DNA of 64,000 nucleotides from a virus (lineage: Duplodnaviria; Caudoviricetes): IMG/VR virus record IMGVR_UViG_2883475777_000001, one strand, 5' to 3'. Both the position numbers and the translations under genes were made by a program. Below the pieces are notes generated by a model. The model did not search any database and was not told where the DNA came from. It saw only the letters and a program-made list of their open reading frames with translations. This document shows, piece by piece, positions 25,042 to 49,867 of the stretch; the first letter of the stretch is position 1, and each line of letters begins with the position of its first letter.

Positions 25042-27075
25042 TTACGCTTCGCCCTTGGCTTTCACGCCACCGCGCGAGTCTTGAAGTGCCACCCCGAAGT
25101 CGTGGTAACCTCGCATCTGGACACCGAGCTTGTTGAAGTCCGCCTCGGCCGTTTCGATCGTCGGGGCCTCTTGGCCGTTGAGGAATGCGACCTCGATGAC
25201 GGGCAGGTCGGTCGACTCGGCCAGCAGATACCAGGCCTTCGACGAATTGCCCGTGTATTGGGCGTTGGACAGGTAGCGACTGACCTCGACGCGGAACTTG
25301 CCCTGGTGCGGATTGGACACCGGGTACTTCGTGGTGGTCGTCGTGTCCCGCAGTTCCATCGACTTGAAGAGCTGCGAGCCGATGGCTGATAGCGACGTCG
25401 GCACGAGCAAGATCGCCGGCATGATGCCGATCGGCTTGCCGTCGCCATCGACCTGATCCATGAAGGTCACTTCGCCTTCGGTCAATCCGTCGATCGACAG
25501 CGCCGTGCTGGCACCGGTGATGTAGTTGTTGTTGCCCGCCGTGAAGAAGGCGCTGTTGGCCAGGAACGTTGACCAGAAGACGTCATTGATCTTCAGACCG
25601 CTGCCCCGACCAAGCTTGCGCGGCACGGTGGTGATGGCATTCAGGTCGTCGTTGATGATGTCGCGGCGATCGATCGAGAGCATCAGGCCGTAGGTGTCGG
25701 CCTTGTTCTCGTACTTCTCTTCGCCGAGCGTCCCGTGCTTGAGCTCGCCGCCGGGTGCGACCTGCTCGTATTGATCCTTGCCGACCAATCGGTAGCTGGT
25801 CACGGTCTTGAAGTCGCTCACGTTGCGCACTGCCGTAACGTTCCGCCAGGTCCGCTCGACGCTGAAGAAGCCATCGAGCAGGAATTTGTTAGCGACGTTC
25901 GACAGGATGCCGCCGATGTCGACGGTCGAGAATCCGGCTTCGAGCGTCGGGTTGAAGGCGTAACGCAACACAGCCCGGCTGTCGCGGAAGTTGCGGCCGG
26001 TGTAGCCGTTGGCCCATGCCGCTTCGAGCAGCAGTTCCTGCAGCCCGATGCCGCCGCGGAATCGCTCCGTCGCGGCGTCGAGCGTTTGACCGTCGAACAT
26101 GGCGTCGATCTGGTCCACGTGCCCTGTCAGCAGGCACGCCGCCTCGAGCACGCGGGCATTGATCGTCTTGTCGTGCATGTGAATCGCCGGCGTGCGGGGC
26201 CGGTTGGCGCGAAGCACTTCCAATTCACAGCGCGTCACGTCCCAGCCTTCACCGATCGCCTTGGCCTCGATCTCAGGAAAACGGCCCGCGCACAGTTGGC
26301 GGATCGCCGAGATGCGACTGACTTCGGCAGCAGCCTGCGAGCGGATTTCATCGACGGCGGAGCCGGCGGTCACAGCAGGGGCCTGCGTTTGTTGGTTCGC
26401 TTGGTGCGAATCCCGCTCGTTCGCGTCGGTATCTGTGGCGGCAGTGGTGTTTTCGGGGTCCATGTCGGAATTCTCCTCTTGCTTGTCGGTATGGTTGGCA
26501 GCGGCTGCGACCGTCGCGCTGGTCTGCCCATCCGCGCCGAGATCGACGAAACTGATCTCACTGAGCGTGGACTTGCGCACGACGTTGAGCGGGCCGGCGT
26601 GCTCCTGGCCGTTGACGATTACCGTTTGGCGTTCCTTGACGAACTCGAACTCATCGACGCTCGCTCCCACGGATGCCTGCCAGGGGAATCCGTTCTTCGA
26701 AGAGGCGACGACTTCGCGGGCGGCTGCTGTGTCGCGGGACACAATGCCCGTTGCCACCAGCTGCCCGCCGTCGATGCGGATGTTGTCCGTGTGCCCGACG
26801 CCGGACGTCGGGTCATGACTGAAGCGGATCGGCCGCGACTGCGAGGGAATCCCCAGTCCCGCGAGGTCGATGATGACCGGAAAACGCCAGCCCGCGATCC
26901 GCATCGGTGCGCCGGTGTAGGCGACCATTCGGAATCGGGGCAGCGCGGGCGCGGAGCCTTCATCGCCGGCTGACGCGACGTCGATCATCGCCGTCGCGGT
27001 GAGTTGCAGCGTGCTGGGCACGTTCTGCTTTTCAGGCTGCGCGGGCGGGCGCGTCTTCGTTTGCTTCTTCGCCAT
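25042..27075 (-). CDS. Prohead protease-scaffold-major capsid fusion protein (helper prophage)
   Basis: Protease part VAYTG...GFPWQASVG...LSEISFV; capsid part APGGELKHG...TYG...IDRRDIINDD...HDFG. Confidence 0.88.
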   Translation of the reverse strand: MAKKQTKTRPPAQPEKQNVPSTLQLTATAMIDVASAGDEGSAPALPRFRMVAYTGAPMRIAGWRFPVIIDLAGLGIPSQSRPIRFSHDPTSGVGHTDNIRIDGGQLVATGIVSRDTAAAREVVASSKNGFPWQASVGASVDEFEFVKERQTVIVNGQEHAGPLNVVRKSTLSEISFVDLGADGQTSATVAAAANHTDKQEENSDMDPENTTAATDTDANERDSHQANQQTQAPAVTAGSAVDEIRSQAAAEVSRISAIRQLCAGRFPEIEAKAIGEGWDVTRCELEVLRANRPRTPAIHMHDKTINARVLEAACLLTGHVDQIDAMFDGQTLDAATERFRGGIGLQELLLEAAWANGYTGRNFRDSRAVLRYAFNPTLEAGFSTVDIGGILSNVANKFLLDGFFSVERTWRNVTAVRNVSDFKTVTSYRLVGKDQYEQVAPGGELKHGTLGEEKYENKADTYGLMLSIDRRDIINDDLNAITTVPRKLGRGSGLKINDVFWSTFLANSAFFTAGNNNYITGASTALSIDGLTEGEVTFMDQVDGDGKPIGIMPAILLVPTSLSAIGSQLFKSMELRDTTTTTKYPVSNPHQGKFRVEVSRYLSNAQYTGNSSKAWYLLAESTDLPVIEVAFLNGQEAPTIETAEADFNKLGVQMRGYHDFGVALQDSRGGVKAKGEA

Positions 27076-27506
27076 CTTCGTCCTCCTCGATGTCGTCGTT
27101 GGTCGGTGGAACTGCCGCAGGTGTCAGCCCGAGTTCCTGCATCAGCGAGAATTCCTTGGCCCGCTGGCGCAAGGCTTCTTCCCAATCGCGCCCCTGCCGG
27201 GCGTATTCGTGAGCAAGGGTGGTGGTGAGATTGGCCAAACGGGTCGCTTGGGCGCTGGCTTCTTTGGCGGGGTCCACATGCTCGTGGCCATCCCAAAACC
27301 ATTGATGGGGCCATTGAGCGATCGGCCCAGCGTCCGCGGGCAAGAGTCCCGGAATGAGCACCGCTTCGTCGAACCAAGCGGCCAGCACTCGATCGAGCAC
27401 AACCGATTCCAGTTGGGCCTGCTCGACGCGGATCGATTTGAAGTACGTCTGATGATCCAGACGGCCCGAGGCGTAGTTGTATCCCGAGCTGTTTCCCGCC
27501 GCGACG
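27032..27506 (-). CDS. Lambda-type portal protein, 3' half (interrupted gene)
   Basis: NVAAGNSSGYNYASGRLD...WFWDGHEHVDPAKE... continues in frame from ...CLNMPF of the 5' half. Confidence 0.92.
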
Positions 27507-27531
27507 TTGAACGGAGCGCAAGAGGCGGGAT
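27507..27531. other. att junction (left) of the inserted satellite
   Basis: Core TTGAA 27507-27511; arm CAAGAGGCGGGAT 27519-27531 is the exact inverted repeat of 37931-37943. Confidence 0.9.
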
Positions 27532-27555
27532 AAGAGCGAACAATGCAGAACGCGT

Positions 27556-29394
27556 CTATTCGGCGGCGATCCAACCCTTTTGATGGCCGAGGTTGTTAAT
27601 CTTGCCGCTTAAGACGGCCTGCGCAAGGAGGCGAGAAGCGTACGGCCGTCGCACGCCGAGATGGTCGGCTACGTTGCCAAGGAACACCACGTCGTCCTGT
27701 TCGCGGACGAAGCGCGCGGCGTCCCGCCAGCGACCGGGACTGGGAACGTCATCATCGGTAATTGGAATCGTGCCATCGATGCCCAGGTCGTCGCGAAGTT
27801 CGATCGCGCCGTCCCACAGCGTGATCCGGTGCTTGCCGTCGCCACGACGCTCGCGACGAAGAATGATCCGCTTCACGGTCTGGCGAATGGCGAACGCGAG
27901 CTTCTCACGGTCCGCTTCCGACAGGCACTCCAGCAGTTCGTCCAACCGTGCGATGACCTCCAGCGCTTCCGGCGTCGGTGCTTGCTCGCCCTGCACCTGG
28001 TGCAGCTTCTCTTTGAGCTCCGATTCCTGTTTGCGCCACGTCGCCAGCAGCTTCGAGATACCGGGAACGTCCAACGGATCGGCCAGGGCCAGGTTCTCCG
28101 TGCCCCGTTCGATCTTGGCCCACAAGTCGGCAAGCTGCGATTCGTACCGACCGACATCGGTCTGAACCTTTCTCGTGCGACGCGTGATCTCCTTGCGGAT
28201 CGCTCGCTTTGTGCGTTCGTCCGACATGAACGCCTGTAACTTGGACAAGACGCCCTGCTCGATGGTCTCCGCGCGGAAGCTTGGCCGATCCGATTCCTCC
28301 GGGTGTTCCTCGAATTCGCGGGGAGGCAGCGAATAGTACCGTCGCACGACCGCGCGTTGCGAATGGCTCATGGTGCAGCCTTGCAGTCTGCGGCCGTCGC
28401 CGAGAAAGACAACTCCAGTGAGCAGGTACTTGCCTGGCGTTGGAGCCTTGCACGGCTCGCTGTTTCGCTGGAGCTGCTTCTGCGCGCGGTCGAATAACGC
28501 GGGTGTTACGAGCGGCTCGTGGGCGTCTTCGCATGTCACGCCACCATCATCGTAGAGACTGCGAAACTTGCCGCGCCGCCGCTTCTGGCCGGCAACGATC
28601 CTTCCCACGTAGACCGGATTCGTCACCGTGCGTCGAACACTCGTGGCGTTCCACCGGTTGCCATGCATCGTTCGGTAGCCTTGCCGATTGAGCTGGCGGG
28701 CCACGGACCCGCACGACGAGCCTTTTGCAACGGCCTCGAACATCATTCGCACCGCTTCGACAGCTCGCACGTCGGTTGAGATGACCAGTCTCGACGACCA
28801 TTCAATCGGACGCCGGAACTTCTCCGTTGGCGATACGCGGCGGACGACGACACCCGTTTCGTCGAGAATCTCCCGGTCGTAGCCGAACGGTGGCCCGCCC
28901 TGCTTCTGGCCACGACTGATTGCCAGTCGCTTGCCACTAATAACCCGGTCGGCCAGTTTCACCGATTCCTCGCGTGCGCCGTACTGATCGACGATGGCGG
29001 TGATCACGCCGCCCAGGTTGTTGAAGTCGAGTTCGCCGCGCTGGCAGGTGATGATCTTCACGCCGGCGTCCCGTAGCTGCTTCCAATGGATCATCGCGTC
29101 GAACACGTCCTCGCGCGACATCCGGCTTTGTTCAGAAAGCAGAACAGCGCGAAACGCGCCGCCTTTTGCGTCACCGAGCAACCGCTGGAAGTCCTTGCGG
29201 TTGTTCGATTCCGTGCCGGTCAGTCCGTGGTCTTCATACCAGCGGACGATTTTGTAGCCGGCGCGATCGGCCAAGGCCTCAATGTCCTTTCGTTGCCGCG
29301 CGGGGCTATCCTGCTGTTGGTCGGTGCTCATGCGGATGTAGCCAACCGCCGGAACGCGCGACCCGTTTCTCCGTGTAGAATTGCGTTTAGCCAT
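27556..29394 (-). CDS. Large serine recombinase (satellite integrase)
   Basis: VGYIRMST catalytic motif, SEQSRMSR, GPPFGY, recombinase domain, coiled coil; likely ATG 29394 with GGAAAGGG RBS. Confidence 0.92.
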   Translation of the reverse strand: MAKRNSTRRNGSRVPAVGYIRMSTDQQQDSPARQRKDIEALADRAGYKIVRWYEDHGLTGTESNNRKDFQRLLGDAKGGAFRAVLLSEQSRMSREDVFDAMIHWKQLRDAGVKIITCQRGELDFNNLGGVITAIVDQYGAREESVKLADRVISGKRLAISRGQKQGGPPFGYDREILDETGVVVRRVSPTEKFRRPIEWSSRLVISTDVRAVEAVRMMFEAVAKGSSCGSVARQLNRQGYRTMHGNRWNATSVRRTVTNPVYVGRIVAGQKRRRGKFRSLYDDGGVTCEDAHEPLVTPALFDRAQKQLQRNSEPCKAPTPGKYLLTGVVFLGDGRRLQGCTMSHSQRAVVRRYYSLPPREFEEHPEESDRPSFRAETIEQGVLSKLQAFMSDERTKRAIRKEITRRTRKVQTDVGRYESQLADLWAKIERGTENLALADPLDVPGISKLLATWRKQESELKEKLHQVQGEQAPTPEALEVIARLDELLECLSEADREKLAFAIRQTVKRIILRRERRGDGKHRITLWDGAIELRDDLGIDGTIPITDDDVPSPGRWRDAARFVREQDDVVFLGNVADHLGVRRPYASRLLAQAVLSGKINNLGHQKGWIAAE

Positions 29395-29499
29395 GATTGC
29401 CCTTTCCAAACCAAAGGGTGTGAATGGTAAGAGCCGCCGGCGTGTTCGCTGCACGCCGACGGCTCGCTTTGGTTTCAGACGTTGGGTGGTTTCGACTGA

Positions 29500-29703
29500 T
29501 CATCGGCCTTCCAAGATTCCGACGACCGCCGCCAACCTCTGGTTGACTTCAGCCATCGTTCCAACATGCGTCCATGCGATGTCGACCTCGCCGCCGGGTG
29601 CCGGTTGGTCCTGCAACAATTCGCGGATGCGTTGCAACAGGTCCTGCGCAACCAGGTGGGACGTCTCGTAGGCCGGTTCGGCTTGCAATCGTTGTCGTGT
29701 CAT
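29500..29703 (-). CDS. Small protein, homolog of 46087-46314
   Basis: AEPAYETSHLVAQDLLQRIRELL...W.HVG.MAEVN.RL matches the prophage copy. Confidence 0.7.
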   Translation of the reverse strand: MTRQRLQAEPAYETSHLVAQDLLQRIRELLQDQPAPGGEVDIAWTHVGTMAEVNQRLAAVVGILEGR

Positions 29704-29975
29704 TTGGACGCCCTCCGTTTCTTCGCCGCCAAGGTGAAACGACCGGGGCCGGTCTTCTTGAAACGGGCGTCCTTTCCCTTGCCGATGTCTCGAATGATCG
29801 AAGCGTACAAGGTGGCCTGCGGCGTCTTGCCGCCGGGCGAGGTCCACAGGTTTTTCCTTTCCATCGCCTCGATCATCTCTTTGCAGCTCATGGGCTTTCG
29901 GGCTTGCCGCAGCACCTTGATGGCTGCATCGATCTGGCTCAGCTTCGGTTGGGTTGCGGTCTTCTTTCCTGCCAT
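29700..29975 (-). CDS. Winged-helix (HARE-HTH-like) protein, homolog of 46690-47091
   Basis: KLSQIDAAIKVL...LWTSPGGKTPQATLY...ARFKK. Confidence 0.8.
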   Translation of the reverse strand: MAGKKTATQPKLSQIDAAIKVLRQARKPMSCKEMIEAMERKNLWTSPGGKTPQATLYASIIRDIGKGKDARFKKTGPGRFTLAAKKRRASK

Positions 29976-30066
29976 CGTTTCGTCTCCCAATCGGATTGGT
30001 GTTGTTGCGTCGCGAACGCCGCGACGCGTGACAGGACAGTTACCTCGCGTTTTCGGCGTCATCAAG

Positions 30067-30381
30067 CTAGGCGTTGGCATCCTTGGCCAAGTCCGCCGAA
30101 TCGTCGCCAGACGGGCCAACTGTGGGCGACGGGTTGGCCATTTGGGCGTCCAGCCAAGGGTATTCGCCAGCCCGAATCGACGCTTCGATCTGTTTCAGAA
30201 ATTGCCATTCCCACAGCGGGACCATTACGACGTCCTGCTTGCTGTAGCGCTGGATCACAATCGGCTCGTCGGTGTTGGCCACGGATTGATACGCCCATCC
30301 CAGGCTGTCTCGCAGGTGGGTGATCCGCATGACGTGCTCGGGCGTTGGTTCGGGCGTTGGTTCGGGCATTGGCTCGGACAT
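30067..30381 (-). CDS. Phd/YefM-like DNA-binding protein
   Basis: MRITHLRDSL...VANTDEPIVIQRYSKQDVVMVPLWEWQFL resembles the Phd/YefM pattern. Confidence 0.55.
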   Translation of the reverse strand: MSEPMPEPTPEPTPEHVMRITHLRDSLGWAYQSVANTDEPIVIQRYSKQDVVMVPLWEWQFLKQIEASIRAGEYPWLDAQMANPSPTVGPSGDDSADLAKDANA

Positions 30382-30484
30382 GTACAAGAAAGAAACTGTA
30401 GGTAAGTTTGCGACTGTTCCCGCGGGCGTCTCCTGAAGACGGTCGCGAGGTAGGACCCGTTCGCCCAACGGAGGCGATTCAAGG

Positions 30485-30717
30485 TTGCCACCAAGACTGC
30501 CAACATGCCCCCGTCTCTTTTTGGTGGCAATCTTGGCAGTGTTGGCAGCCTTCCCCAAAAACACCGGGAACCACGCGTTCCCTCTACGGCAATTTGGTGG
30601 CCATCTTCCTTTTTGGTGGCAGTGTTGGCAGTCTTGATTCGGTGAAAGATGTCCAAGGCTGCCAAGACTGCCAACTTATTGAGACGGGGGTTGGTGGCAG
30701 TCTTGGTGGCCATCTTG
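30485..30717. repeat. Cluster of TTGG(TG)GCAG-type short repeats in both orientations (candidate satellite ori iterons)
   Basis: Roughly a dozen copies, e.g. ttggtggcaatcttggcagtgttggcag at 30521, ttggtggcagtgttggcagtcttg at 30613, inverted ccaagactgccaac; overlaps the end of the helicase gene. Confidence 0.7.
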
Positions 30718-32286
30718 ATCCGGCAGGCTCCAATACCACTTGCCACCATCCTTCTTGGACCGACCTTCGATCTCCTTGAACGCACGCCGGAGCGTTCGCT
30801 CCGAGAAGCCGTTCTCTCTCGCATCCGCAATCACCTGTTTCGATGGCTGGCGACCTTCAGCGAGCTCGTTGCGCAACCAGGCGACGACCTCACGTCGCTC
30901 CGCGCCTTGAGTGCTCTTGTCGCTGGTCGATTTCAATTCCGCCGCGAAGGCCTCGTCGGCGTGCATGCGAACCGGTTCGAGTTCCCATGCCACGCGGCTG
31001 TCGACGATGCGGTACGCCAGGCCGTCGGGATCGCGTGCGAGGTTTAGCTTGCCGGGCAGGAACAATCGTCGCTCGGGATTCTCCTGGTCCTTGGCCACCG
31101 CCCACACGGCGCGTGAAGCGGCCGCGAATGCCAGCGAGCCCATCGCACGGTACACCGCTTTCGCGCCACCCGACTTGCTGAGATGGGTCACAGCGACAAT
31201 CGCCACCCGATGGCGGCCAGCCAAATCGGCAAGCGGCGCGAGTAGACCTCGGACATCCGTGTTCTTGTGGGAATCAACGCTGCCGGTGTAGGCCGAAATC
31301 GGATCGATCACGACCAGGCGCGCGTCGGGCATCTCTTGCATGACTTCCTCAAGGCGTGGGAGGTCGGCCTCAAGCGAGAAGTGCCGGCGTCTGCCACCTT
31401 CGGCCACGCCTTCGACGGCCACTATGTTCCCGTCGTCCGCGCCGGCCTTGTCCAATCGCGGCGCGATGGTGTCGGCCAGATCGTCCTCGGCGTTGAAGAG
31501 CACGACGCCCGCCGGCGACTGCTTGAGCAAGGGCAGGTCGGGCCACGGCTCGCCGCGCGAAACGCGAGCGGCGATGTCCAGCGTGACGAATGACTTTCCC
31601 AGACCTGGATCGCCGGCCAACAGAGTCAGCTTGCCCAGCGGAATCCGCCCAGGCCACAACCAGTCAAGTAGTTCACGTTCCACGTCTTTCAACCTCCTCT
31701 TGATCGCGTGAGGCGGTGCCGGTGGTCGCCAGAGCGGCGCTGGTGCCGGTGTTGGCTTTGCCGGCTTCGGTGCCTCAAGCATGCCGCGCAGTCCCTCCGT
31801 CAGAAAATCCTCGGGCCGTGGCGGTGGTACGATCCGCTTCGGATTGATCTCCGCTTTCGCCCACGCATCGACCGCCTTCTGCCACGGCGGCACAATCTCG
31901 TCCGCGACTTGGCCGTTGGTCGCACCCGCTTCGCACAGTTCCCACCAGAGTTGCTTGGCCATCTCCATTGCCTGGCAACGTCCGCGCGTGCGACATGCGG
32001 CAACCTCGTGGCCCGTGTGGTAGACCACCTGGTCGCTCTCCATGTCGGGATCGCCGTACATCTCGGCGCTCGGCACGAGCAGTTCGGCTTCCCGTCTTGC
32101 CTGCCGCCGGTCGTTCCAGGCCAGGGCGATGGCTGCCTCGTCGGGCGCATCCCAGGTGGCGACCACCATAGCGCCCTCCATGAAGGCTTGGCGATAGACG
32201 CGTTCGTTGGTTTGGCGCTCGGGCGTGACAGGCCAATGCGGACCGTCGTCGTAGAAGCGAACCGTCTCAGGCGGCAGCGTCACCAT
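30676..32286 (-). CDS. AAA_25 / RepA-like SF4 helicase (satellite replication protein)
   Basis: Walker A AGDPGLGKS, Walker B LVVIDP, VTHLSK motif, C-terminal HTH-like GFSERTLRRA. Confidence 0.85.
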   Translation of the reverse strand: MVTLPPETVRFYDDGPHWPVTPERQTNERVYRQAFMEGAMVVATWDAPDEAAIALAWNDRRQARREAELLVPSAEMYGDPDMESDQVVYHTGHEVAACRTRGRCQAMEMAKQLWWELCEAGATNGQVADEIVPPWQKAVDAWAKAEINPKRIVPPPRPEDFLTEGLRGMLEAPKPAKPTPAPAPLWRPPAPPHAIKRRLKDVERELLDWLWPGRIPLGKLTLLAGDPGLGKSFVTLDIAARVSRGEPWPDLPLLKQSPAGVVLFNAEDDLADTIAPRLDKAGADDGNIVAVEGVAEGGRRRHFSLEADLPRLEEVMQEMPDARLVVIDPISAYTGSVDSHKNTDVRGLLAPLADLAGRHRVAIVAVTHLSKSGGAKAVYRAMGSLAFAAASRAVWAVAKDQENPERRLFLPGKLNLARDPDGLAYRIVDSRVAWELEPVRMHADEAFAAELKSTSDKSTQGAERREVVAWLRNELAEGRQPSKQVIADARENGFSERTLRRAFKEIEGRSKKDGGKWYWSLPDQDGHQDCHQPPSQ

Positions 32287-32434
32287 CGTTGGCCTCCGCT
32301 TGTTTCCGTCGCTTCTCGTAGATGTCGATCAATACGGCGGCCCAGGCGTCGGCGACTTCCTCAGGAAGCTTCTCCTTCGTATCCGGATCCTGCCGGCGCG
32401 CATCCTCAGCGCACGGTGTTGACTTGGTTCTCAT
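32267..32434 (-). CDS. Small hypothetical protein
   Basis: 55 aa (ADAWAAVLIDIYEK) overlapping the helicase start. Confidence 0.45.
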   Translation of the reverse strand: MRTKSTPCAEDARRQDPDTKEKLPEEVADAWAAVLIDIYEKRRKQAEANDGDAAA

Positions 32435-32559
32435 GACCCTCTCCTCGAAACCGCGAATTCTGCTGTCGCAGAGACAAATCGGCGTCGCGGCCTGCAAGTC
32501 CTGGTGCAAGCCACGATTCGCCACGCGGGTGCGGGCCAGTCCATTGAGTGCGGCGCGGA

Positions 32560-34401
32560 CTATTCGCCGTCGGCCTTGTACGCGGCGCGATAATCGCCCA
32601 GCGCGGAACCGAAGTCGTGATAGACTCGCCACGTCGCGGCGAGCTTGTTGGGATCGGCGTCGAAGCCGAAAAACTCAACCGTCGGGCTCTGCTTGCCCTG
32701 CAGGAATGCCACGACGATTGCCGCGTCCTGCCGGCCGGCGAACAGATACCATGCCTTATCGCTGGTGCCGGTGAAGCGAGCTGAGTTCGACAGCCGCGGT
32801 TCGACCTCGAGCGACACGACGTTCTTGAGGGCATTGCCCGTCGGCTCGTCGTTGTTCGCCCGCTGGATAAAGTCGGACTGCAGCAGCTCCTTGGCGGTCT
32901 GCTGCAACTCGGGCGGCACAAGTAACGTGCGAGGTCGGATGTCGAGGTCGCGATCCTCGTCGTCCCGCTGCGCCATCATGCGAGCGATGCCGGTCGCCAG
33001 CGCGATCGCGTCGAGCGTCGATCCGGCACCGGTGTCAAAGTTGCCGTTGCCGGCGCTGAAGAACGAGCCGGCCCCACCGAGCAGCGTCGTGTAGGCCAGA
33101 TCGCTGACCGCGCGCATGGCCGCTCGACCGAGCGACATCGCCGTGTCCTCGAACAGACCGAGGTCGTCGTTGATGATGTCGCGCCGGTCAATCGACAGCA
33201 TCTTGCCAAAGGTATCGACCGAATACTGGTAGGTCGCCTCGTCGATGCTGCCGTGCTTCAGTTCGCCGCCCGGCGCAACCTGCGTCAGGTCACCGGTATC
33301 ACTCGGTCGGATGCCGGTGTGATCCTTGAAGTCGGCAGCCGACTTGATCGCCGCGAACGCACGCCAGGTGGCCGGCGACTCGGTGTAAGCATCGAGAAGC
33401 ACCTTGTTCGCCGCATTCCCAAGCGCGACGGGAAGAGAGTAAGTCGACAGCGCCGCGCGGATCAGGGCCTCGCGTCCCGATGGCGCGTCGCGCTGTTCGA
33501 CCATCAGTGCCGCCCGGCATAGATCAACGAGGCTCGTGGCCCGCAGCTCGCGGGCTTGTTGGGCGGTTTGCGGGCCAAGGTGCTTCTCGACCAGATTCTC
33601 GTGGCCCATGTGGACCAGCACGGCCGCTTCGATCACGTCGCGCGTGGGCGCGACCGTCGTCGTTTGGATGTACGGACCGCGCGGGCGCGACGCTCGCAGC
33701 ACGGCCAGTTCCGTCTGCTGTCCGGACCAGCCTTCTCGGATGGCCTGCGCCTCGATGTCGCCGTGTTCGCCATTGCAGGCACGACGAATCGCCGTGATCC
33801 GTTCGGTTTCGGCAGCCGCTTCGGCACGGATGTCCTCGGCGGTTTTTTCTGTGGTTGTCATGAGAGCCTCTTCTCCTTCCTGCGAAGCGGCGATCGCGAC
33901 CGACGTTCCGGCATCGGCACCAATCGCCACAATGCTGACTTCCTTGAGCGCGGACGACCGCACCAGCGTGAACCCGCTACCGGTCGCCCTGATCGTCCGC
34001 CCGTTTACTTCAACAATGTCGCCGGCGCGTACTCGCTTCGATTCGCCCGGAGCAACACCGACCGACGCCTGAAACTGAAACCCGCTGCGAGCCAGCTCGA
34101 TGATCTGCTTCGCGGCCTCATTGGTGGGCGCGATCGTGCCGGCGACTAGCAACTTGCCGTTGGCGACCGACGCCTGCCCGAAACCCACAACACCTCGCAG
34201 CGTAGAGTCGTGGTCGGCCAGGATGCTGATCTGAGACGCCGAGACGTCGACGCCGGCCAGGTCGAGAACTAGCGGTCCCCATCCAGGCACGACCATCTCA
34301 CCGCCTGTGTAGGCGACGATGGTGACGGCCGGCGTTTTGCCGGCGGCCTGAATATCCACGTCGCTTGTCGCGAGCAGCAGTTCTTCAGTCGCTGTGGACA
34401 T
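32560..34401 (-). CDS. Second protease-scaffold-major capsid fusion protein (satellite)
   Basis: VAYTG, GFQFQASVG, QVAPGGELKHG, DTFGKMLSIDRRDIINDDL, KAWYLFA, YHDFG are colinear with the helper capsid protein. Confidence 0.88.
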   Translation of the reverse strand: MSTATEELLLATSDVDIQAAGKTPAVTIVAYTGGEMVVPGWGPLVLDLAGVDVSASQISILADHDSTLRGVVGFGQASVANGKLLVAGTIAPTNEAAKQIIELARSGFQFQASVGVAPGESKRVRAGDIVEVNGRTIRATGSGFTLVRSSALKEVSIVAIGADAGTSVAIAASQEGEEALMTTTEKTAEDIRAEAAAETERITAIRRACNGEHGDIEAQAIREGWSGQQTELAVLRASRPRGPYIQTTTVAPTRDVIEAAVLVHMGHENLVEKHLGPQTAQQARELRATSLVDLCRAALMVEQRDAPSGREALIRAALSTYSLPVALGNAANKVLLDAYTESPATWRAFAAIKSAADFKDHTGIRPSDTGDLTQVAPGGELKHGSIDEATYQYSVDTFGKMLSIDRRDIINDDLGLFEDTAMSLGRAAMRAVSDLAYTTLLGGAGSFFSAGNGNFDTGAGSTLDAIALATGIARMMAQRDDEDRDLDIRPRTLLVPPELQQTAKELLQSDFIQRANNDEPTGNALKNVVSLEVEPRLSNSARFTGTSDKAWYLFAGRQDAAIVVAFLQGKQSPTVEFFGFDADPNKLAATWRVYHDFGSALGDYRAAYKADGE

Positions 34402-34981
34402 TGGTCGCCTCCTGCGGTTCGAGTTTGGTTCCCTGCGGGAAGAACCGGATGTAGGCGTACTCGTTCGGATCGGTGGACGGTTCGATCACGGTGACCAAGC
34501 CGAGCACGTCGAAGCTCGTCGAGAACCCCATCTTGTAACGAGCGGCTGCAACGCGACGCGCCTTCACGCACTGGCCGAACCGCAGGTTGTTGACCCAGCA
34601 GTAGTGCGTCCAGGACGACCATCGGTCCTGGTCGTTCTCATAGATCCACTCGGCGGCCGCGTCGATGTCCTCCTTGCTCCACTCGAGCCAATCGTTGCCC
34701 GTCCAGGTCATGCCTGGCCGCGCTCCCTTCGGCTGGACGATTCCTTTCTCGGCGAGCTGCCAGAGGTAGATGCCGTCGACGTACAACCCTCGGAGACGCA
34801 GTTCGCGGAATGCGCCTTCCGTCGACTTGGGATAGATCAGCGCCGTGCTGGAGTTGCGACTGCGCATCTTCTCGTCGTCGATGTTGGGTAGCAATTCCAT
34901 CAACTGATCGAAGTCCTCGCGGAGCCAATAGTGCTTCTTGTCGGCCCGGGCTTCGCGGTCCTGCTGTTCAGTTTGCCTCAT
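34385..34981 (-). CDS. Hypothetical protein
   Basis: 198 aa from ATG 34981 (ATGA-coupled to the sigma gene), overlapping the capsid gene start. Confidence 0.6.
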   Translation of the reverse strand: MRQTEQQDREARADKKHYWLREDFDQLMELLPNIDDEKMRSRNSSTALIYPKSTEGAFRELRLRGLYVDGIYLWQLAEKGIVQPKGARPGMTWTGNDWLEWSKEDIDAAAEWIYENDQDRWSSWTHYCWVNNLRFGQCVKARRVAAARYKMGFSTSFDVLGLVTVIEPSTDPNEYAYIRFFPQGTKLEPQEATNVHSD

Positions 34982-35487
34982 CCTTGTTCTCCTTCTTTGA
35001 TGATTGAGAGTTCGCGTTGGACGGTTCGCTTGGGAATTCCCGTCTCCCTGGCGATTTCGTCGACCGTGCAGCCGGCCATCCACAGCGTGCAGACTTCCCG
35101 CCTTCGTTCCGGCAGGCTGCCGAGATAGTCGCGAATCAACCCGTCGACGGCCGGGTCGCGACAACGCGAAGTGCGCGGCGTCGCATAACCCTCGATGTTT
35201 CCCGGCTGGTTGTCAGAGTCGATTCGTGAGACAGCCTTCGGCTCGCGTTTGCCTTCCGAGTAGAAGTCACGGAGGAGGTTGTACTGCCGGCTCGCCATGC
35301 GGTTCTTGGCAAGACCGACGTCCTTCGTCTCACACAAGACCTGCCAGCCGGCCAGAAACAGCTCCTGAATCGCATCCTCCGTGCGATGGTCGTCCCAGCC
35401 ATGCGGTCGCTTGGCCGCGATGAGTTTCTTGACCAACGCCTCCGCAAACGGGTGGAGATCATCGGGGGTGTCGAAGTAATCGGTCAT
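34978..35487 (-). CDS. Sigma-70/ECF-like factor (satellite)
   Basis: Region 2-like EDAIQELFL; region 4 LPERRREVCTLWMAGCTVDEIARETGIPKRTV. Confidence 0.7.
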   Translation of the reverse strand: MTDYFDTPDDLHPFAEALVKKLIAAKRPHGWDDHRTEDAIQELFLAGWQVLCETKDVGLAKNRMASRQYNLLRDFYSEGKREPKAVSRIDSDNQPGNIEGYATPRTSRCRDPAVDGLIRDYLGSLPERRREVCTLWMAGCTVDEIARETGIPKRTVQRELSIIKEGEQG

Positions 35488-35821
35488 CCAATCTCCTTTG
35501 ACCGGCAGGCTTCCTGCGTCTACTCAACTAATCCACGCGCCTCCGCGCAAACGCGCCATCGTAGACTCGAAATCTTCTTGAGACCTCGGCCTCCATCGGA
35601 TCGTCAGTTGTTTGCGTATTAGCTGCGCGGAAATATCACTGATTTTTCTCATGTCCGACGATTGAACTCGCGTTGCAGAATGATAAACTGGGCAATTTAG
35701 TGGAGGCGAGAGCAGTTCGCTGCCGATTCGTGGAGTCGCTGAAACTTTTTGGACTCCGAAGTCGTCTCTCCTTGATAGAGAGGTTTCCATTTTCCCTAGC
35801 CGGCCAACCACGAGGTGTCAA

Positions 35822-37807
35822 ATGCAAAGACGATTCACGGTTGTTATCACAACCTTACTGTTGACTCTCTCTTCTACTGTTTCTTATGCCCGCACCTGGA
35901 CCGAGCGGTCATCCGGACGAACAGTCAATGCAGATCTCGTCTCCTTTGCTGGCGACGTCGTAAAGATCAGACGCCAGAGCGATGGCAGAGTCTTCGCTGT
36001 CCCCGTCGAACGGTTGAGCGACGTTGACCGAACCTTTGTGGAATCTGCTTCTCAAACGCGCCCTGAGGCAACGCCCCGAAAAGGCAACGTTAGGTTTGTG
36101 GCGTTTAATGCGCAGGCCCAGGATGAGTACAGTGCTGAGCAACTCAATGCGTCGAAACGCATCGTCTGTGTCTGGAAAAAAGGCACGGCTCAAGCAGCCA
36201 TGAGGACGATTGAAGCGGTCGGTCTGAAGGTCACGTACCTTGGCTCTGCAATCCCGTTCGGCGTTTGCACCGGACAACTCACCGAGGACGGACTCAAGCG
36301 GCTGAGGAGCGACCCGTCGATCCAAAGTGTCGAACCTGACATCGAGTTGGTCGTTGACGACGCGCAGCCCGAAGTGCGGCAGATTACGGACGAAGTCTTG
36401 GCAGCATACGAACACGCTGGCCGTATGGTGTGCGTCTGGAAGAAGGGGAAGAAGAAGGAAAGTCTCGAGATGCTTGCGCAAATGGAGAAAGAAGGAAAGC
36501 TGCGCGTGATTCACAAACTCGAGACCACTCCAATCGCCTTCTGTGACTGGAAGCCGCCACTGCAGCAAGCAACGCTGGTGCAACTGCAAAAATCGCCAAT
36601 GCTGGATTACGTTGAACCAGATTTGACGCTGGTGAAGGACAACCCAACCAAAGGTCGAGAGATTGTATTCCCGAACGGGACACCCAAGACGGTCGTGTCT
36701 AAAGGCGTTGTACTGACCACGCCAGATGATCCAGAGATTGCCAAGCTCTGGGGAATGGATTCCATCAAGGCGAAGAAGGCGTGGACCTGTGCCAACCAAA
36801 CAGATGTTGTTGTGGCAGTGATCGATTCGGGCGTCGATTATAATCATCCGGACCTGAAGGCCAACGTGTGGGTCAATACGGGTGAGATCCCTAACAACGG
36901 AGTTGATGACGACAGTAACGGCCACAAGGATGACTACTACGGCCTGAACTTCACTCAACTTCCACCTACAACGGATACGCTCGATAGATACGGACACGGT
37001 AGCCACGTCGCCGGAACTATCGGTGCCGTTGGCAACAACAAGCTCGGAGTCGCAGGCGTCAATTGGCGTGTGCAGGTCATGGGACTCAAAGTTTTTGATG
37101 ACGCTGGAACTGCACCAGTTGGAAGCGCTCTAGCTTCTGCCATCGATTATGCTGTCGCGAGGAAAGTTCGCGTCATCAACTTGAGTCTTCGCTGGGGAAG
37201 TGAGCGGGCTTTCTTGAAACGTGTTATTGATGGAGCGGAAGACAAGGGCGTTCTGATTGTATGCTCAGCTGGCAATCTAAATCGTGGTGATGATCCACGC
37301 ACGATTGATAATGACGTCGTGCCCCAGTTCCCCGCGTCCTTTCCGAATGACAACGTCATCGCGGTTGCGAACATCACGGAGAGAGAACAGCTTAATGCGA
37401 GTAGTCATTTTGGATTGCGGAGCGTCGATTTGGGTGCTCCCGGGACAGACATTTACAGCACTGTGCCAACTTCTGTAAAGGCATCGGGTTATGACTCGTA
37501 CACTGGGACATCCATGGCAAGTCCGCATGTCGCAGGTGCGGCGGCGCTGATTTGGGGACATAAGAGGTATAGCAGTGGCGATTTCAAGGCGATTCGAAAG
37601 CTACTTCTAGACAATGCTCGCTCAATTCCCGCGTTGTCGGGAAAGTGCGTAACTGGCGGCACTCTTGACATTGGCTTCTTGTGTAAGCAGAGCCCGCCAC
37701 CTATCGGAAAGAAACCGCCAATCGTGATTTGCCCCCCACCTCGTTGTTACATCCCGTGTCCCCCGCGCCGCCACGTCTTTTATCGCTTCCGTTGTGGTAG
37801 TCGGTAG
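35822..37807 (+). CDS. Secreted S8 subtilisin-like protease with SHD1 domain and two I9-like prodomains
   Basis: Signal peptide; RTWT...G...A...SHD1 pattern; triad VAVIDSG, HGSHVAG, GTSMASPHVAG. Confidence 0.92.
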   Translation: MQRRFTVVITTLLLTLSSTVSYARTWTERSSGRTVNADLVSFAGDVVKIRRQSDGRVFAVPVERLSDVDRTFVESASQTRPEATPRKGNVRFVAFNAQAQDEYSAEQLNASKRIVCVWKKGTAQAAMRTIEAVGLKVTYLGSAIPFGVCTGQLTEDGLKRLRSDPSIQSVEPDIELVVDDAQPEVRQITDEVLAAYEHAGRMVCVWKKGKKKESLEMLAQMEKEGKLRVIHKLETTPIAFCDWKPPLQQATLVQLQKSPMLDYVEPDLTLVKDNPTKGREIVFPNGTPKTVVSKGVVLTTPDDPEIAKLWGMDSIKAKKAWTCANQTDVVVAVIDSGVDYNHPDLKANVWVNTGEIPNNGVDDDSNGHKDDYYGLNFTQLPPTTDTLDRYGHGSHVAGTIGAVGNNKLGVAGVNWRVQVMGLKVFDDAGTAPVGSALASAIDYAVARKVRVINLSLRWGSERAFLKRVIDGAEDKGVLIVCSAGNLNRGDDPRTIDNDVVPQFPASFPNDNVIAVANITEREQLNASSHFGLRSVDLGAPGTDIYSTVPTSVKASGYDSYTGTSMASPHVAGAAALIWGHKRYSSGDFKAIRKLLLDNARSIPALSGKCVTGGTLDIGFLCKQSPPPIGKKPPIVICPPPRCYIPCPPRRHVFYRFRCGSR

Positions 37808-37930
37808 CGGCTTGCAGAGTGACGACTAGTAGTGCTAGTTACGCCCAGCAGGAGCATTCCTGCTGGGCATTTCTTTTTGACTCAATGACGTTGATACAGA
37901 AATGCCGAATCGAACAGGTTGTTGACGAAA

Positions 37931-37958
37931 ATCCCGCCTCTTGAACGCCCTTCTTGAA
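37931..37958. other. att junction (right) of the inserted satellite
   Basis: Arm ATCCCGCCTCTTG 37931-37943; core TTGAA 37954-37958. Confidence 0.9.
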
Positions 37959-38942
37959 AGGCATGTTCAGGCAGCGGGCAATCTCGTTGAGAATCTCGTG
38001 CTTAAACTCGCCATAGGTCGTCGCGGGCTGTTCGGCTTCGAGCTGGCTCATCTTCCAACCGCCAGGCATGGTGAGCAGCGCCCGCTGTTCCAGTTCGATG
38101 GGCTCGAATGGTTCGGCGGCGTCCGCCTCGCCGTTGGCTGGCGCGTCGGTGTAGAGGATGCCGGCGAAGTCGGCAGCCGTTTCAGCGGCCGCAAGCACGG
38201 CCAGCGTGAATCGCCGCAACTGTGCAAACAGCGGCAGCGCCGGCATGATGTCGGGAATGCCGCGTGCCTGGCCGGGTCGGTCGAGGCGGAACAAGTGAAT
38301 CATCGCTTCGGCGGGCAGGCGGTCGTAGTCTCGCGTCAGCCGAACGGCTTCGCCTGGATGCGACTTGAGCACGTGGTATTCGATCGGATTGCCGGCGTCG
38401 TCAAACACGATGCCGTCGATGCCATTGGTGATCAAAGCATTCAAGTCGGGCGTGCAAACCTGGTCGGCTTCAATCAACCGCAGGTCGAGTTGGATCGCCG
38501 TCGGCAGCACGGGATTGCTTGTCAACACGGCGAACGCTTCACCGTCCTGGGCGCGCGACATTCGCATCGTGCGAAGTTTCTCGGGCAGGTTGACGGCTCT
38601 GGACCACGCGCCAAACTCTCGTTCGATCCGGCGATTGGCGTCGGCGTCATCCGTCAGTACCTGCAGCCGAGGTCCGGTGCCGATCGCGTCGTTGGCCAGC
38701 GTCAACACAATGCCACGGGCGTAGCTGTTGTTGGCTACCTCATAGCGTGCTCGATTACGCAGAATGCGACGTACCTCGGCGCTATTGGCCGCGTTGGCGG
38801 ACAGTCCATCCGCGCCGGCCCAATGCCGACGGTTATCGTCGTTGGTGACGGCCGCATCGTAGCGGGCGCGAAGCACTCGCGCGGCCCGCGTCAACGGGCG
38901 GCTAGTCGTCTTGGTGAACAGATTGGCGAGCCAACGGAACAT
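37954..38942 (-). CDS. Lambda-type portal protein, 5' half (interrupted gene)
   Basis: RARYDAA, LRNRARYEVANN, RPGQARGIP...EIARCLNMPF; joined to 27032-27506 gives 1464 nt = 487 aa + stop. Confidence 0.92.
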
Positions 38943-39299: not shown

Positions 39300-40130
39300 T
39301 TAGCGCAAGTCGGGTGTGCGCCTGGAGAGGACTGCAAGGACCTCGTCATGGCCCCATCTGGAACCGACCTCCTTGCGTCGATGTTGAGCCCACCCGCTTG
39401 CCGACATGTGATGCTTGGCATCAAGGATGGTGGCGTCCGCGCCACGGTTCAATAGAAACGACACCATGTTCGGCTTCGCTTCCCATGCCGCCCAGTGCAA
39501 TGCGGTCGCTTTCCCATCCGTCACGTTCACATCCAGACCGCTATCGAGCAAGTATTCCACGAGGGGTACACGATCGCAGACTGCGGCACACCTCAGCACA
39601 TCAAAGACTTGCTCATCGGAAAAGGATGCCGACTCAAGGTCCGCCCGCACTCGATCGAGTTGTCCAGCTCCGGCCGCGATTCGTGTCGATAGGATTTTCG
39701 CACCCTCTCTTACGAGCAGGTCGACAACTTCGACCATGCCGAAATGAACGGCGAAATCCAGCGGCGTGCCATCGGGGATGCCGGGATACGAGGCAACGGC
39801 TTCCATGTTCGCGCCGGCGTCGATCAAAACTTCCGCGACGCCCGCTTCTCCCAAACTCGCTGCGCCGTGAAGAGGCGTTTCGCCTGCGCCGGGAAGTCCG
39901 TCCACCGGCGCGCCCGCGTCGATCAGAATCTGTGCCAACTCCGCCTGCCGGCCATGATCCCAGAGTTGATTGAAGGGGCCATCGCTCAAGAAGTGAAGCG
40001 GCTCAGTCTGGCAGCTGTTCAGAATGCTGCCCCAGCGGATCGGCGTGGAAGCTAGTTTTGGGTTTTCATTCAGAAGCTGTCGGGCGCGTTCGACATCGCC
40101 AGCGACAATCGCCTTCTTAAGTTGACTCAT
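39300..40130 (-). CDS. Ankyrin-repeat protein
   Basis: GETPLHGAA, GTPLDFAV, GKATALHWAA repeats; 1 bp downstream of the MerR gene. Confidence 0.85.
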   Translation of the reverse strand: MSQLKKAIVAGDVERARQLLNENPKLASTPIRWGSILNSCQTEPLHFLSDGPFNQLWDHGRQAELAQILIDAGAPVDGLPGAGETPLHGAASLGEAGVAEVLIDAGANMEAVASYPGIPDGTPLDFAVHFGMVEVVDLLVREGAKILSTRIAAGAGQLDRVRADLESASFSDEQVFDVLRCAAVCDRVPLVEYLLDSGLDVNVTDGKATALHWAAWEAKPNMVSFLLNRGADATILDAKHHMSASGWAQHRRKEVGSRWGHDEVLAVLSRRTPDLR

Positions 40131-40131
40131 T

Positions 40132-43145: not shown

Positions 43146-43150
43146 TTCAT

Positions 43151-43342
43151 TCAGACGCGATTTGGAGGAGCCTGGACCGGCGACTCGTAAGTCACGATCT
43201 TGCGGCTGCAATGCCGGCACTCTTTGCGGCGGCGAATACGGCCGTCACGCAGCGGTTCCGTATGCGTGGTGTAGAAATGCCGGCAGCCGCACCGTGGGCA
43301 TTCGATGCCGCGATTGGGTTGTTGTGAGCCGGCCTGATTCAT
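43151..43342 (-). CDS. Small Zn-ribbon protein (Ogr/Delta- or NrdR-like)
   Basis: CPRCG...RRRKECRHC...TYE; ATGA-coupled to terL. Confidence 0.7.
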   Translation of the reverse strand: MNQAGSQQPNRGIECPRCGCRHFYTTHTEPLRDGRIRRRKECRHCSRKIVTYESPVQAPPNRV

Positions 43343-45609
43343 TCGCGACGCCTCCGCTGCAGTTCGGCGAAGCTGACACGCTCGCGTTTGGCGGGACCAA
43401 ATGCGCTCCCTGTTCCAGCGAGCACCGCCCCCTGAATTGAGGCGGCCACAGCGCAGCCGACTAGACAATCAAACCAGTGGTTGTCGCCGCGTTCTGGTCG
43501 CATCTTCCATTCGTCAACCGTGCGGCCGCGGCCTTCGGTCTTCACTCGATACTCGGCCGACAAGTGCTCGGCAAAGAGACGATGCTGGTCGGCGCTTTCG
43601 CCAAACAACGACAGGCAGCCACGGTCACCCATCGGCACCGCCAGCCGAGCGTGCACGAATGTTTTCCAGAAGTTGGTGTCGTAGACGACGTGGCGCACAG
43701 CACGCTTGCCGGCCACATTGGGCATCCGCCAGTTGTGTCCGACCCGGTCGCCCGGCCGGCGCTTGTACTCGGAGAAAGGCTGACTCGATGCGCCAACAAA
43801 CCGGCCGTGACTGGGAATGATGACGCCGGCGTGTGCGGATTGCCGGCAGAATTGATAGACCACGTCAGTCGATGCACCCCAGTTGGCGTCCACCAGGCAG
43901 CGTTCGATTCGCAGCATGGCACCATCATCGCGCCGCCATTCGCGACCGAGATGCGACGTCGTCAACTGTTCGAGTCCCGCATAGATGGACCCTTCCAAAC
44001 CACTCGCCTTCGTCGCCAGCGGCAGCGTGAGCCGGGCATCTCGCAGCGTAAAGTAAGGCCGCTGTTGGTCAGGAAACTCGCCATAGTCGACGACATAGCC
44101 GGTGAAATCGTCTTCCCACGCTGCGACGACGTAGAACAGTAAGTTCCCTTGAACGTCCACAAACATCGTCAGATGGTTGCAGCCAATTGGCAGCACGCCT
44201 CGCTGCATGCGATTGGTCTTGGCGGCGATTTGGTCAGGCGACAGTTCGTCTGCTTCGGACGTTTCCTCGGGTAGTGGCTCGTTCTGGTACTCTGCGAAGA
44301 ACGCCGCCTCGTCTTGCAACTTGAGGTTCATCGCGTGCTGGATCGCCGACTCTTCATCGTGGTTGAATCGTTCTTGCCAAGCCACGTCAGCGCCGGCATC
44401 CATTGCTTCCCGATTGGCCGCGTAGAACTCGGTCGCCAGTCGGATGTCGCCGTGGGCGCGGAGGCTCTCGCCGCGAAGTTCGGCGTAACGCTGCCACAGC
44501 TTCTCATCGGTGGGAAACGAATACACCATCTTCGTGCGCTCGCCGTTCCATTCCGGATGCTTGTCGCGGCATAAAATGTTGTCAGCCATGTCGCTGGGGC
44601 GGATTACCGTACAGGGCATGATGCCGCTGATCTTCTTGCCGGGACCAGCCAGACCCAGGATAGCGCCTGCGAGTATTCCCTCGCGCGTCGCGCATTGCGA
44701 CAACGACCGAGCCGACTCGTCGGTCTGCGGATCGTCGAGCACGACCAGTGAGGGGCGAACGGTATGTCCGTCCGAACGCTTGTATTTCATGCCGCGAATG
44801 CGGCCAGTAATGCCAGCGACCTTGATGATCGCCCCGCTCGCGGCGCTGCCGGGCATCGAAGGAAGCACGACCTCGCGGGCCGTCCAACCGATGTGCGTTC
44901 GCTCGCCCTTGAAGAGTTGACCGTTGCAGCGATTGGCGATTCCATCGAGGCACTGAATCGGATAGACGACCTCGGGGAAGTCTTCGAGCAACAGGTCGTT
45001 GCCGTCGAGTTCCATCTTGATCGAGTCAAGCATATCCATCGCATGCCCTTCGTCGCTGCCGATGAGACACACGAACTCGCGGTGGCCGTTGAGCACGGCC
45101 CAGATGCACGCGCATTCGCAAATCGTCGTCTTGCCCGAACCGCGAGGCATCGCCATCGCGAATAGTCCGCCGCGCAGCACGGCCTGCTCGATCTTGCCGA
45201 TCACTTTCAAGTGGTCGGGCGACCACGGGAGGTGGAACGTCAGCGGAAAGTAGGTCTCGCAGAAGAATCGAAAATCGGATGCTGCCCGCGCTTTGCGGTC
45301 CCCGCTGACGACCTCGGGCAGTTCACCAATGTCGCGGCCGGCAATGGCAAGCGCGACATTGCGAGCGCGAGCGCGATCCTTCAGCTTTTCATACGGATCG
45401 CCGTCGGGCTCTGGGCGCGGCGTGTGCCGAATCTCCACGAGCCACGCGACGTACCGCAGCAAGTCTACGAAACGTGCATCGCCGATTCGCATGCCGGCCC
45501 GCGTTCGATGGCGATGGAGCTGCCGTTCATTGATGACCTCGCCCAACGGCGTCGAGTTCAACAAGCGGCACAATTCGCTCGGTCGTAGTTTCCGCGGGTC
45601 AGTTGCCAC
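43339..45609 (-). CDS. Terminase large subunit (gpA-like) with N-terminal HTH extension
   Basis: Walker A AMPRGSGKT, Walker B VVLDDPQ, nuclease FVDVQ, C-terminal DNHWFDC. Confidence 0.9.
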   Translation of the reverse strand: MATDPRKLRPSELCRLLNSTPLGEVINERQLHRHRTRAGMRIGDARFVDLLRYVAWLVEIRHTPRPEPDGDPYEKLKDRARARNVALAIAGRDIGELPEVVSGDRKARAASDFRFFCETYFPLTFHLPWSPDHLKVIGKIEQAVLRGGLFAMAMPRGSGKTTICECACIWAVLNGHREFVCLIGSDEGHAMDMLDSIKMELDGNDLLLEDFPEVVYPIQCLDGIANRCNGQLFKGERTHIGWTAREVVLPSMPGSAASGAIIKVAGITGRIRGMKYKRSDGHTVRPSLVVLDDPQTDESARSLSQCATREGILAGAILGLAGPGKKISGIMPCTVIRPSDMADNILCRDKHPEWNGERTKMVYSFPTDEKLWQRYAELRGESLRAHGDIRLATEFYAANREAMDAGADVAWQERFNHDEESAIQHAMNLKLQDEAAFFAEYQNEPLPEETSEADELSPDQIAAKTNRMQRGVLPIGCNHLTMFVDVQGNLLFYVVAAWEDDFTGYVVDYGEFPDQQRPYFTLRDARLTLPLATKASGLEGSIYAGLEQLTTSHLGREWRRDDGAMLRIERCLVDANWGASTDVVYQFCRQSAHAGVIIPSHGRFVGASSQPFSEYKRRPGDRVGHNWRMPNVAGKRAVRHVVYDTNFWKTFVHARLAVPMGDRGCLSLFGESADQHRLFAEHLSAEYRVKTEGRGRTVDEWKMRPERGDNHWFDCLVGCAVAASIQGAVLAGTGSAFGPAKRERVSFAELQRRRRE

Positions 45610-47821: not shown

Positions 47822-48187
47822 TCAACCGCCCACCTCCTTCGCGACGTGGGCCAACGTGGGCGACCAGTCGGGACCGAGATACCGAACGGGCTTGCCCAAC
47901 TCGATGGCGATTCGGATTTCCGCTTGCACCCCCGCACTCGCCTCCCAACCATCGAGCGTCAGCACGACCACTTCGTTGCAACATTCAAGATGGTGCCGGT
48001 CGAACGGTTCCCAGAATCGCCAGTCAGTCGGCAGCCCATGCGTGCAGATGCAGTGGCCGTGAGCGATCGGCGAAAAAACGGCGTGGCCAAGCCGCATTAG
48101 CTTCGCCGCCGCGCGGCACGCGTCACGAAAACGCAATTCGCGCACCGCAACATCGGGATGCGAATACGGGCTGGCCAGGTAGATCAT
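47822..48187 (-). CDS. DUF1937 / nucleoside deoxyribosyltransferase-like protein
   Basis: MIYLASPYSHPD...FSPIAHGH...SAGVQAEI. Confidence 0.75.
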   Translation of the reverse strand: MIYLASPYSHPDVAVRELRFRDACRAAAKLMRLGHAVFSPIAHGHCICTHGLPTDWRFWEPFDRHHLECCNEVVVLTLDGWEASAGVQAEIRIAIELGKPVRYLGPDWSPTLAHVAKEVGG

Positions 48188-49581: not shown

Positions 49582-49867
49582 GGCAACCTCCGTGAATCAG
49601 CTGAAGAACAGGATCTTGATCAGGACCGCGAACCAGGCAACGCGCCAAGCGAAGCCTTCCAGCCCTTGGGCCGTGGGAACAACACGCGACTTCCAGTACT
49701 CGTCGCGGTCGGAGCGGCGGGTGGAAGCGGGATCTTGGGTTTGCAGCATCGGAATCCTCTCGGTTCAGATTTCGGACAAACAAAACAAACTGTGATGCCA
49801 ATGGTGGCTGTTCCCGCGTGCCTCACCTGAGGATTTGGGCCGGGAAGGAACCATTGGCCGGCCGGCG

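Follow-up and report, generated by a model that had tools for sequence, protein, structure and literature searches.

The 64,000-nucleotide stretch of IMG/VR virus record IMGVR_UViG_2883475777_000001, analysed at its full length and called the window below, carries a Planctomycete prophage whose lambda-type portal gene (minus strand) is interrupted by a mobile element of 10.4 kb, which lies between codons F329 and N330 and has a capsid gene of its own. The element spans 27509-37955 (10,447 bp), and the surrounding prophage is referred to as the helper. The 5' part of the portal gene (37954..38942, minus strand; codons 1-329 plus an AA core) and the 3' part (27032..27506, minus strand; 475 nt) face the element with TTGAA repeats at 37954-37958 and 27507-27511. 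The N-fragment open reading frame (ORF; 38942..37839) matched PF05136, the lambda-family portal, in Pfam (E 2.7e-52), the C-fragment ORF (27574..27032) matched the C-terminal part of portal families in PHROG (21/537), and PHROG portal families were matched by both fragments. As the locus stands, the N fragment reads 38 unrelated codons into the element and the C fragment has no portal start; no replacement sequence is supplied, and the portal gene is disrupted while the element is integrated. Joining 38942..37954 to 27506..27032 in silico on the minus strand gave 1464 nt with a single 487-aa ORF (...NMPF/NVAAG...). The original prediction, made from the letters of the window alone, had described both the split at NMPF/NVAA by 10,447 bp between TTGAA repeats and the restoration of a 487-aa portal by excision, and both descriptions held. 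The portal gene, a large terminase (TerL) gene of gpA type and the element each occur once in the 6.5-Mb genome, which is a single contig.

The attachment sites were delimited as attL at 27484..27531 (portal arm 27484-27506, core 27507-27508, element arm 27509-27531) and attR at 37931..37978 (element arm 37931-37953, core 37954-37955, portal arm 37956-37978). When the two element ends were joined, a dyad of 23+2+23 nt was formed in which 19 of 23 positions match and AA is central, as had been claimed; in the uncut window, none of 63,952 positions has a 23+2+23 dyad with 19 or more matches. The inverted repeat of attP was preserved through compensatory changes between the window and the related loci L050/L118, and the AA core was common to six junction sets. 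The crossover is the AA dinucleotide and not the 5-bp TTGAA repeat, since AA alone is common to all attL/attR pairs of the relatives; the 5-bp repeat taken by itself would be trivial. The stop codon (27556-27558) of the element's large serine recombinase (LSR) lies 48 nt from the core and 25 nt from the outer edge of the attP arm (27531), the latter distance agreeing with the original prediction.

Portal orthologues were sought with the portal N fragment as query, each species being represented by a single genome. This gave 80 loci, nearly all in Planctomycetota metagenome-assembled genomes, at 66-83% identity to the 5' part. In the 49 loci with a full-length intact portal the gene runs collinearly straight across the junction, the 5' and 3' parts being contiguous, with AA at the core in 42 of them. 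The 48-nt segment centred on attB is among the most conserved tenth (top ~10%) of the portal gene, with a mean of 0.86 against 0.78. A search for portals split at the same MPF/N codon, proposed in the original prediction, was productive. The portal is broken at the identical nucleotide in L044, L050 and L072, where it gives way to element arms like those of the window (the attR junction). Matching attL junctions are present in L026 (G012) and L118 (the opposite end of the contig that carries L050), with an LSR 69-73% identical to the window's followed by the C-terminal half of the portal. The insertion position has been reused in four other independent assemblies (L050/L118, L072, L044 and L026). 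Because 49 intact orthologues cross the junction and independent assemblies are broken at the same nucleotide, it is more than a chance feature of one genome. The element is integrated by LSR recombination at the AA core within a conserved stretch of the portal gene, and both its recombinase and its att arms are intact.

Along the portal strand the element encodes, in order, a sigma-like protein, a protein without assignment, a major capsid protein (MCP), an AAA_25 protein, a candidate origin, a Phd-like protein, a HARE-HTH protein, a small protein and the LSR. The LSR, AAA_25, MCP and regulator genes are all on the minus strand and so co-oriented with the portal and the late operon. The MCP gene (32560..34401) codes for a protease-scaffold-major capsid fusion of 613 aa (PF25209, E 2e-42; PHROG 4523, E 7e-73). 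The AAA_25 gene (30676..32286) codes for a RepA/DnaB-like replicase (PF13481, E 4.5e-38; PHROG primase/helicase families), and beside it lies an iteron cluster (30480..30690; no strand assigned) in which 6 of the window's 16 TTGGCAG copies fall within 178 bp in both orientations; this is the candidate replication origin. The LSR ORF (27556..29454) matched PF00239 (E 3e-24), PF07508 (E 9e-23) and the PHROG 95 integrases (E 6e-80). Its true start is probably some 20-30 codons further in than 29454; the length of ~600 aa and the coverage of residues 23-543 by PHROG 95 fit the family, the zinc ribbon PF13408 was not detected, and the catalytic motif RMS(T)DQQ is invariant in 6 relatives. With Pfam and PHROG, no portal, terminase, connector, tail or lysis gene and no tyrosine integrase was detected in the element. 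Judged from these genes, it has its own integrase and its own replicon (AAA_25 and iterons) with an incomplete set of virion genes.

The smaller genes of the element, all on the minus strand, are a sigma-70 region-4-like regulator (34978..35487; PF08281, E 9e-8), the protein without assignment (34385..35164; 57% identity to its homologue in L114, no Pfam match), a Phd/YefM-like small protein (30067..30378; present in most family members and named from a sequence pattern, not from a profile), the HARE-HTH DNA-binding protein (29700..30119, likely start 29978; PF05066, E 4e-15) and a 67-aa protein (29500..29703). The protein at 34385..35164 is probably ~186 aa in truth, because homology to relatives begins near residue 74. 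The element's sigma-like proteins had no similarity to the helper sigma factor. On the plus strand lies a gene for an S8 subtilase with an SHD1 domain (35822..37807; PF00082, E 2e-47), an accessory cargo of low, host-like GC (0.53-0.56) for which PADLOC returned a generic subtilase match alone. A plus-strand ORF of 279 aa (29566-30405) was discarded, being a shadow ORF of the HARE-HTH gene on the minus strand. Antisense to the start of the LSR gene, at 29389-29468 (plus strand), the antitoxin RNAs SymR and PtaRNA1, themselves antisense RNAs, gave matches under the gathering threshold (37.6 and 29.2 bits), which may be due to chance.

The helper is the only phage of its type in the genome. Its genes include the gpA-type TerL (43339..45609, minus strand; PF20454), a gpW-like gene, the split portal, a protease-major capsid fusion of 677 aa (25042..27075, minus strand; Pfam/PHROG), neck, major tail and tape measure genes, and further PrimPol, helicase, ParB-DNA methylase (48184..49581, minus strand) and sigma factor genes. 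The TerL, MCP, tape measure, major tail and neck genes are intact, as is the ParB-methylase gene.

Three genes of the element have homologues in the helper: the capsid fusion is 36% identical to the helper MCP over its full length, the HARE-HTH protein 66% identical to that of helper gene 46642-47091, and the 67-aa protein 58% identical to a helper protein of 75 aa (46087-46314). Both partners also carry, after replicase and iterons, a composite motif consisting of an upstream block, GGGAACAG, 17 nt, ACAGTTT and a T-rich leader. The element copy is at 30375..30465 (minus strand; GGGAACAG-N17-ACAGTTT plus the upstream block) and the helper copy at 49770..49860 (minus strand), upstream of the ParB-methylase operon; local alignment of the two gave z of about 6.8. 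In the fetched loci, 16 syntenic copies were counted in elements of this kind and helpers against 0.25 expected. The motif is always 20-30 nt upstream of a ribosome-binding site and start codon and has a GGAAC-N17 layout; on these two grounds it is read as promoter-like in preference to a cos site, a role that it may nonetheless have. The element copy heads the operon that ends in the LSR, a putative and plausible route by which excision would be coupled to helper gene expression. The helper late-promoter motif listed in the original prediction (39185 and 56038) was absent from the element. The helper has iterons of its own (GGTGAAAGAAG / CTTCTTTCAC) at 49874-50174, downstream of PrimPol, in a replicase-iterons-motif layout that mirrors the element's. 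Because the iterons differ, the two are taken as separate replicons.

More than 100 homologues of the element's capsid protein were found (612-616 aa, 65-94% identity). In a capsid tree 21 sequences of this type formed one clade with support 1.0 against 50 helper-type capsids, none of which was more than 41% identical to the capsid of the window's element. A capsid gene acquired as accidental cargo was rejected, the gene being a core gene of a large clade. The conserved backbone of the family comprises one or more regulators, the capsid, AAA_25, Phd-like and HARE-HTH proteins and the LSR. This capsid occurs in 6 of 401 species genomes of the host family and in 0 of 11 other genomes of the genus, which is the pattern of a sporadic mobile element.

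Where flanks were available, most copies were embedded in prophages of the same lineage as the helper, at two sites besides the portal. The first is TerL, which is split at its Walker-B codons (VVLD/DPQ) by inserts of about 10.3-10.7 kb in L109, L112, L114, L115 and L117; in L075 and L083 an LSR adjoins the C-terminal half of TerL. The second is the ParB-methylase gene, the third target of the family, of which both halves were seen in L111, L135, L137 and L141 and the upstream half in several more. A chromosomal copy is present in Symmachiella (L110). The LSR tree has two deeply separated clades, one with the portal-site enzymes (together with L023, L024 and L025 at other sites) and one with the TerL and methylase enzymes, within which the methylase-site group is monophyletic. 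Defence cargo replaces the capsid gene in some members of the portal-site clade: type I restriction-modification genes in L050, and cas3 with a GSU0053-family Cas gene in L023, adjoining glnE.

Several details of the sister copies were recorded alongside. At the methylase site (L111, L135, L137 and L141) the gene is split near residues 342-357, and about 15 residues are found on both sides, which suggests that attP of these elements mimics part of the ParB-methylase gene. In the TerL clade the LSR genes of L112, L114, L115 and L075 have no stop before attL and form ORFs of 1044-1247 aa in frame into the C-terminal half of TerL, so that the integrated and excised forms would encode different recombinase C-termini. 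In a related prophage (L055:6004-9390), TerL contains an intein of LAGLIDADG type, in frame and just past the Walker-B motif by a few codons, near the site used by the LSR elements. In L116 and L138 the helper head-tail and tail genes come immediately after a satellite-type capsid gene and an AAA_25 stub; the two loci look like composites from which deletion has removed the LSR, terminase, portal and helper capsid.

The 10,447-bp insert is best read as a phage satellite embedded in its helper prophage, to which we assign a probability of roughly 70%. The reading is well supported at the level of sequence because relatives occupy the same and other helper sites and the capsid forms a separate conserved clade. 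The genetic links to the helper are specific, consisting of the three homologous genes, the common motif and repeated embedding in one phage lineage. The original prediction had already proposed a satellite in its helper; what stands of it is an LSR-bounded, satellite-type element in the sole portal gene of the genome with genes and a cis motif common to the surrounding prophage, while its suggestion that the portal was novel as an attB did not survive a comparison with the literature (below).

Since the only portal gene is split and is restored by in-silico deletion, and genes and motif are common to both partners, gating of the portal by excision follows logically, and it is this functional gating that we infer. 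On helper induction, the common promoter-type element would switch on the operon that ends in the LSR, and the LSR with a directionality factor would recombine attL with attR, releasing a circular satellite and rebuilding the portal gene. The satellite would then replicate from its own origin and build capsids, probably smaller ones, from its own capsid protein on the helper portal. It would borrow the portal, terminase, connectors and tail of the helper, and be packaged by the helper terminase. Helper virion production would be delayed or reduced until the satellite had gone.

Several observations weigh against this account. Neither a cos/pac site common to element and helper nor a directionality factor for the element was identified. 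A degenerate attP pattern found no free attP form in IMG/VR, its two matches being at unrelated loci without element genes. LSR relatives at 70-78% identity also occupy non-portal sites with defence cargo in place of the capsid gene, and with close relatives of this kind the LSR backbone is not tied to a satellite lifestyle. The copies at L116/L138 and L107 are clearly decayed, and the helper itself might be defective.

The first alternative is that of a generic integrative island, perhaps a carrier of defence genes or other cargo, for whose LSR phage genes chance to serve as attB, so that the prophage is permanently inactivated (as a lock beneficial to the host, or in decay) and the element is not packaged. 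The relatives of the same LSR clade that carry type I restriction-modification or cas genes instead of the capsid, and that can lie at chromosomal sites, would fit it, as would the protease cargo of host-like GC in the window copy and the failure to find a packaging signal. Against it stand three helper genes targeted by two distant LSR clades with the same capsid/replicase/HARE backbone, a capsid clade that is conserved and specific to satellites, the genes and cis motif common to element and helpers, and an LSR and two portal halves that are all intact, and we consider it unlikely. Less probable again, and in our view improbable, is that the capsid homologue is mainly an interference or defence factor that poisons or re-sizes the assembly of related incoming phages, transfer of the element being incidental. 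Interference with capsid assembly is established for P4 and for the Staphylococcus aureus pathogenicity islands; such interference with helpers is common in known satellites, and the defence cargo of relatives would suit this role. The full-length protease-scaffold-MCP architecture is kept as in functional phage genes, which argues against it, and interference of this sort is in any case compatible with the satellite model. That the insertion is an assembly artefact or chimeric join, a concern raised with the original prediction, is scarcely credible, given a genome in a single 6.5-Mb contig, the identical junction in four other independent assemblies and a dyad attP that emerges only upon joining both ends; nothing was found in its favour.

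A broader proposal, to which we would give about even odds, is that an undescribed, phylum-wide family of about 10-kb 'capsid-only' satellites exists in Planctomycetota. Embedding in helpers would have evolved in it independently of the phage-inducible chromosomal islands (PICIs) by way of two unrelated LSR clades, the targets being conserved or catalytic sequences of the portal, TerL Walker B and the ParB-methylase. The common sigma-type promoter would tie excision to the helper, and the satellite's own capsid protein would provide a dedicated small head around the helper portal.

Some features of the helper lie outside this argument. A second LSR gene (3090-4766, plus strand; Resolvase, Recombinase and Zn-ribbon domains) adjoins an HTH_3 gene (1617-2402, minus strand) ~9 kb beyond the tail genes and is possibly the integrase of the helper. 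Between the gpW-like gene and TerL, 39300-43300 holds an ankyrin gene, a MerR regulator and a CopZ-MerT-HMA fusion; the same slot ranges from about 0.1 to >4 kb in related prophages, and because its size differs so widely it looks like a moron/cargo hotspot. At 46594-46657 (plus strand), where a small helper gene is separated from the helper's HARE-HTH gene, a hammerhead ribozyme of type II was detected (Rfam RF02276; 51.7 bits, with the gathering threshold at 37), and no counterpart was found in the satellite.

Among known systems, LSR-excised intervening elements and prophages that split host genes include skin in sigK and SPbeta in spsM; SpyCIM1 in mutL is another gene-splitting element. 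These resemble what is predicted for the element in that gene interruption is reversible and the ORF is restored on excision, in some cases by a large serine recombinase. They interrupt genes of the host, and their switching acts for its development or its mutation rate; the element interrupts a phage gene, and switching would work to the satellite's advantage. P4-like satellites share with the element an integrase, a primase/helicase replicon, variable slots for cargo or defence genes and a need for helper virion parts, but they use a tyrosine integrase and a tRNA attB, and have the capsid size factors Sid and Psu in place of a capsid protein of their own. The capsid-forming PICIs (Alqurainy et al. 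2023, as cited in PMC10085698) likewise have an MCP lineage distinct from the helper's; beyond this they encode a portal, head-tail connectors and packaging proteins, so that tails are all they take from the helper, whereas the element has the protease-capsid fusion alone.

The closest counterparts are the helper-embedded PICIs (HE-PICIs), of which 491 were described, distributed over 14 sites that fall within nine lambda-cognate late genes (Tommasini, Mageeney & Williams 2023, NAR Genom Bioinform lqad036; PMC10111431). The sites include B:Phage_portal_2:241 and A:Terminase_1:245, so that portal and terminase genes had been published as satellite targets, contrary to the original prediction, in which no such satellite was known. 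The same authors made the 'regulated gene integrity' argument for HE-PICIs and reported an experiment in which one satellite was excised once the composite had itself been excised and replicated (PMC10111431). Their paper is cited by De Sousa et al. 2023; for 'helper-embedded', the literature search returned only this paper and papers citing it, and nothing direct was found on satellites in Planctomycetes or, beyond Tommasini et al. 2023, on satellites in portal or terminase genes. Like the element, HE-PICIs are integrated precisely in a late gene of a prophage with key genes co-oriented, supply no replacement sequence and restore the target gene by excision alone. As in the element family, several alternative targets are used, including the portal and large terminase, off-target chromosomal copies occur, and a satellite capsid gene is present.

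The differences lie in the machinery and the hosts. HE-PICIs belong to one tyrosine-integrase clade with PICI architecture in Gram-negative bacteria (PMC10111431); they have an integrase of the 11capE clade with AlpA and occur in enterobacteria and Arsenophonus, whereas the present family uses LSRs of two distant clades in Planctomycetota. The HE-PICI zone order (int-alpA, Bro-N zone, primase, late zone) is not followed by the element, and AAA_25, HARE-HTH and sigma-like genes stand in contrast to the PICI gene organisation. In the portal the element is inserted at about profile position 325, as against 241 and 21 for HE-PICIs, and the family has an additional, non-structural target in the ParB-methylase gene. 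The element family is a convergent, LSR-based variant in another phylum and not a new principle; its novelty lies in the class of recombinase, the phylum of the hosts and the set of genes. The strategy of placing a parasite in an essential helper gene is not confined to one tyrosine-integrase clade of enterobacterial PICIs, and it arose a second time, based on serine recombinases, in a distant phylum in which phages and satellites have hardly been studied. The family supplies natural LSR/att pairs for which the 2-bp cores are defined and three target sites have been mapped, and a testable case of excision-gated virion assembly, in composites that prophage predictors will rate as defective prophages.

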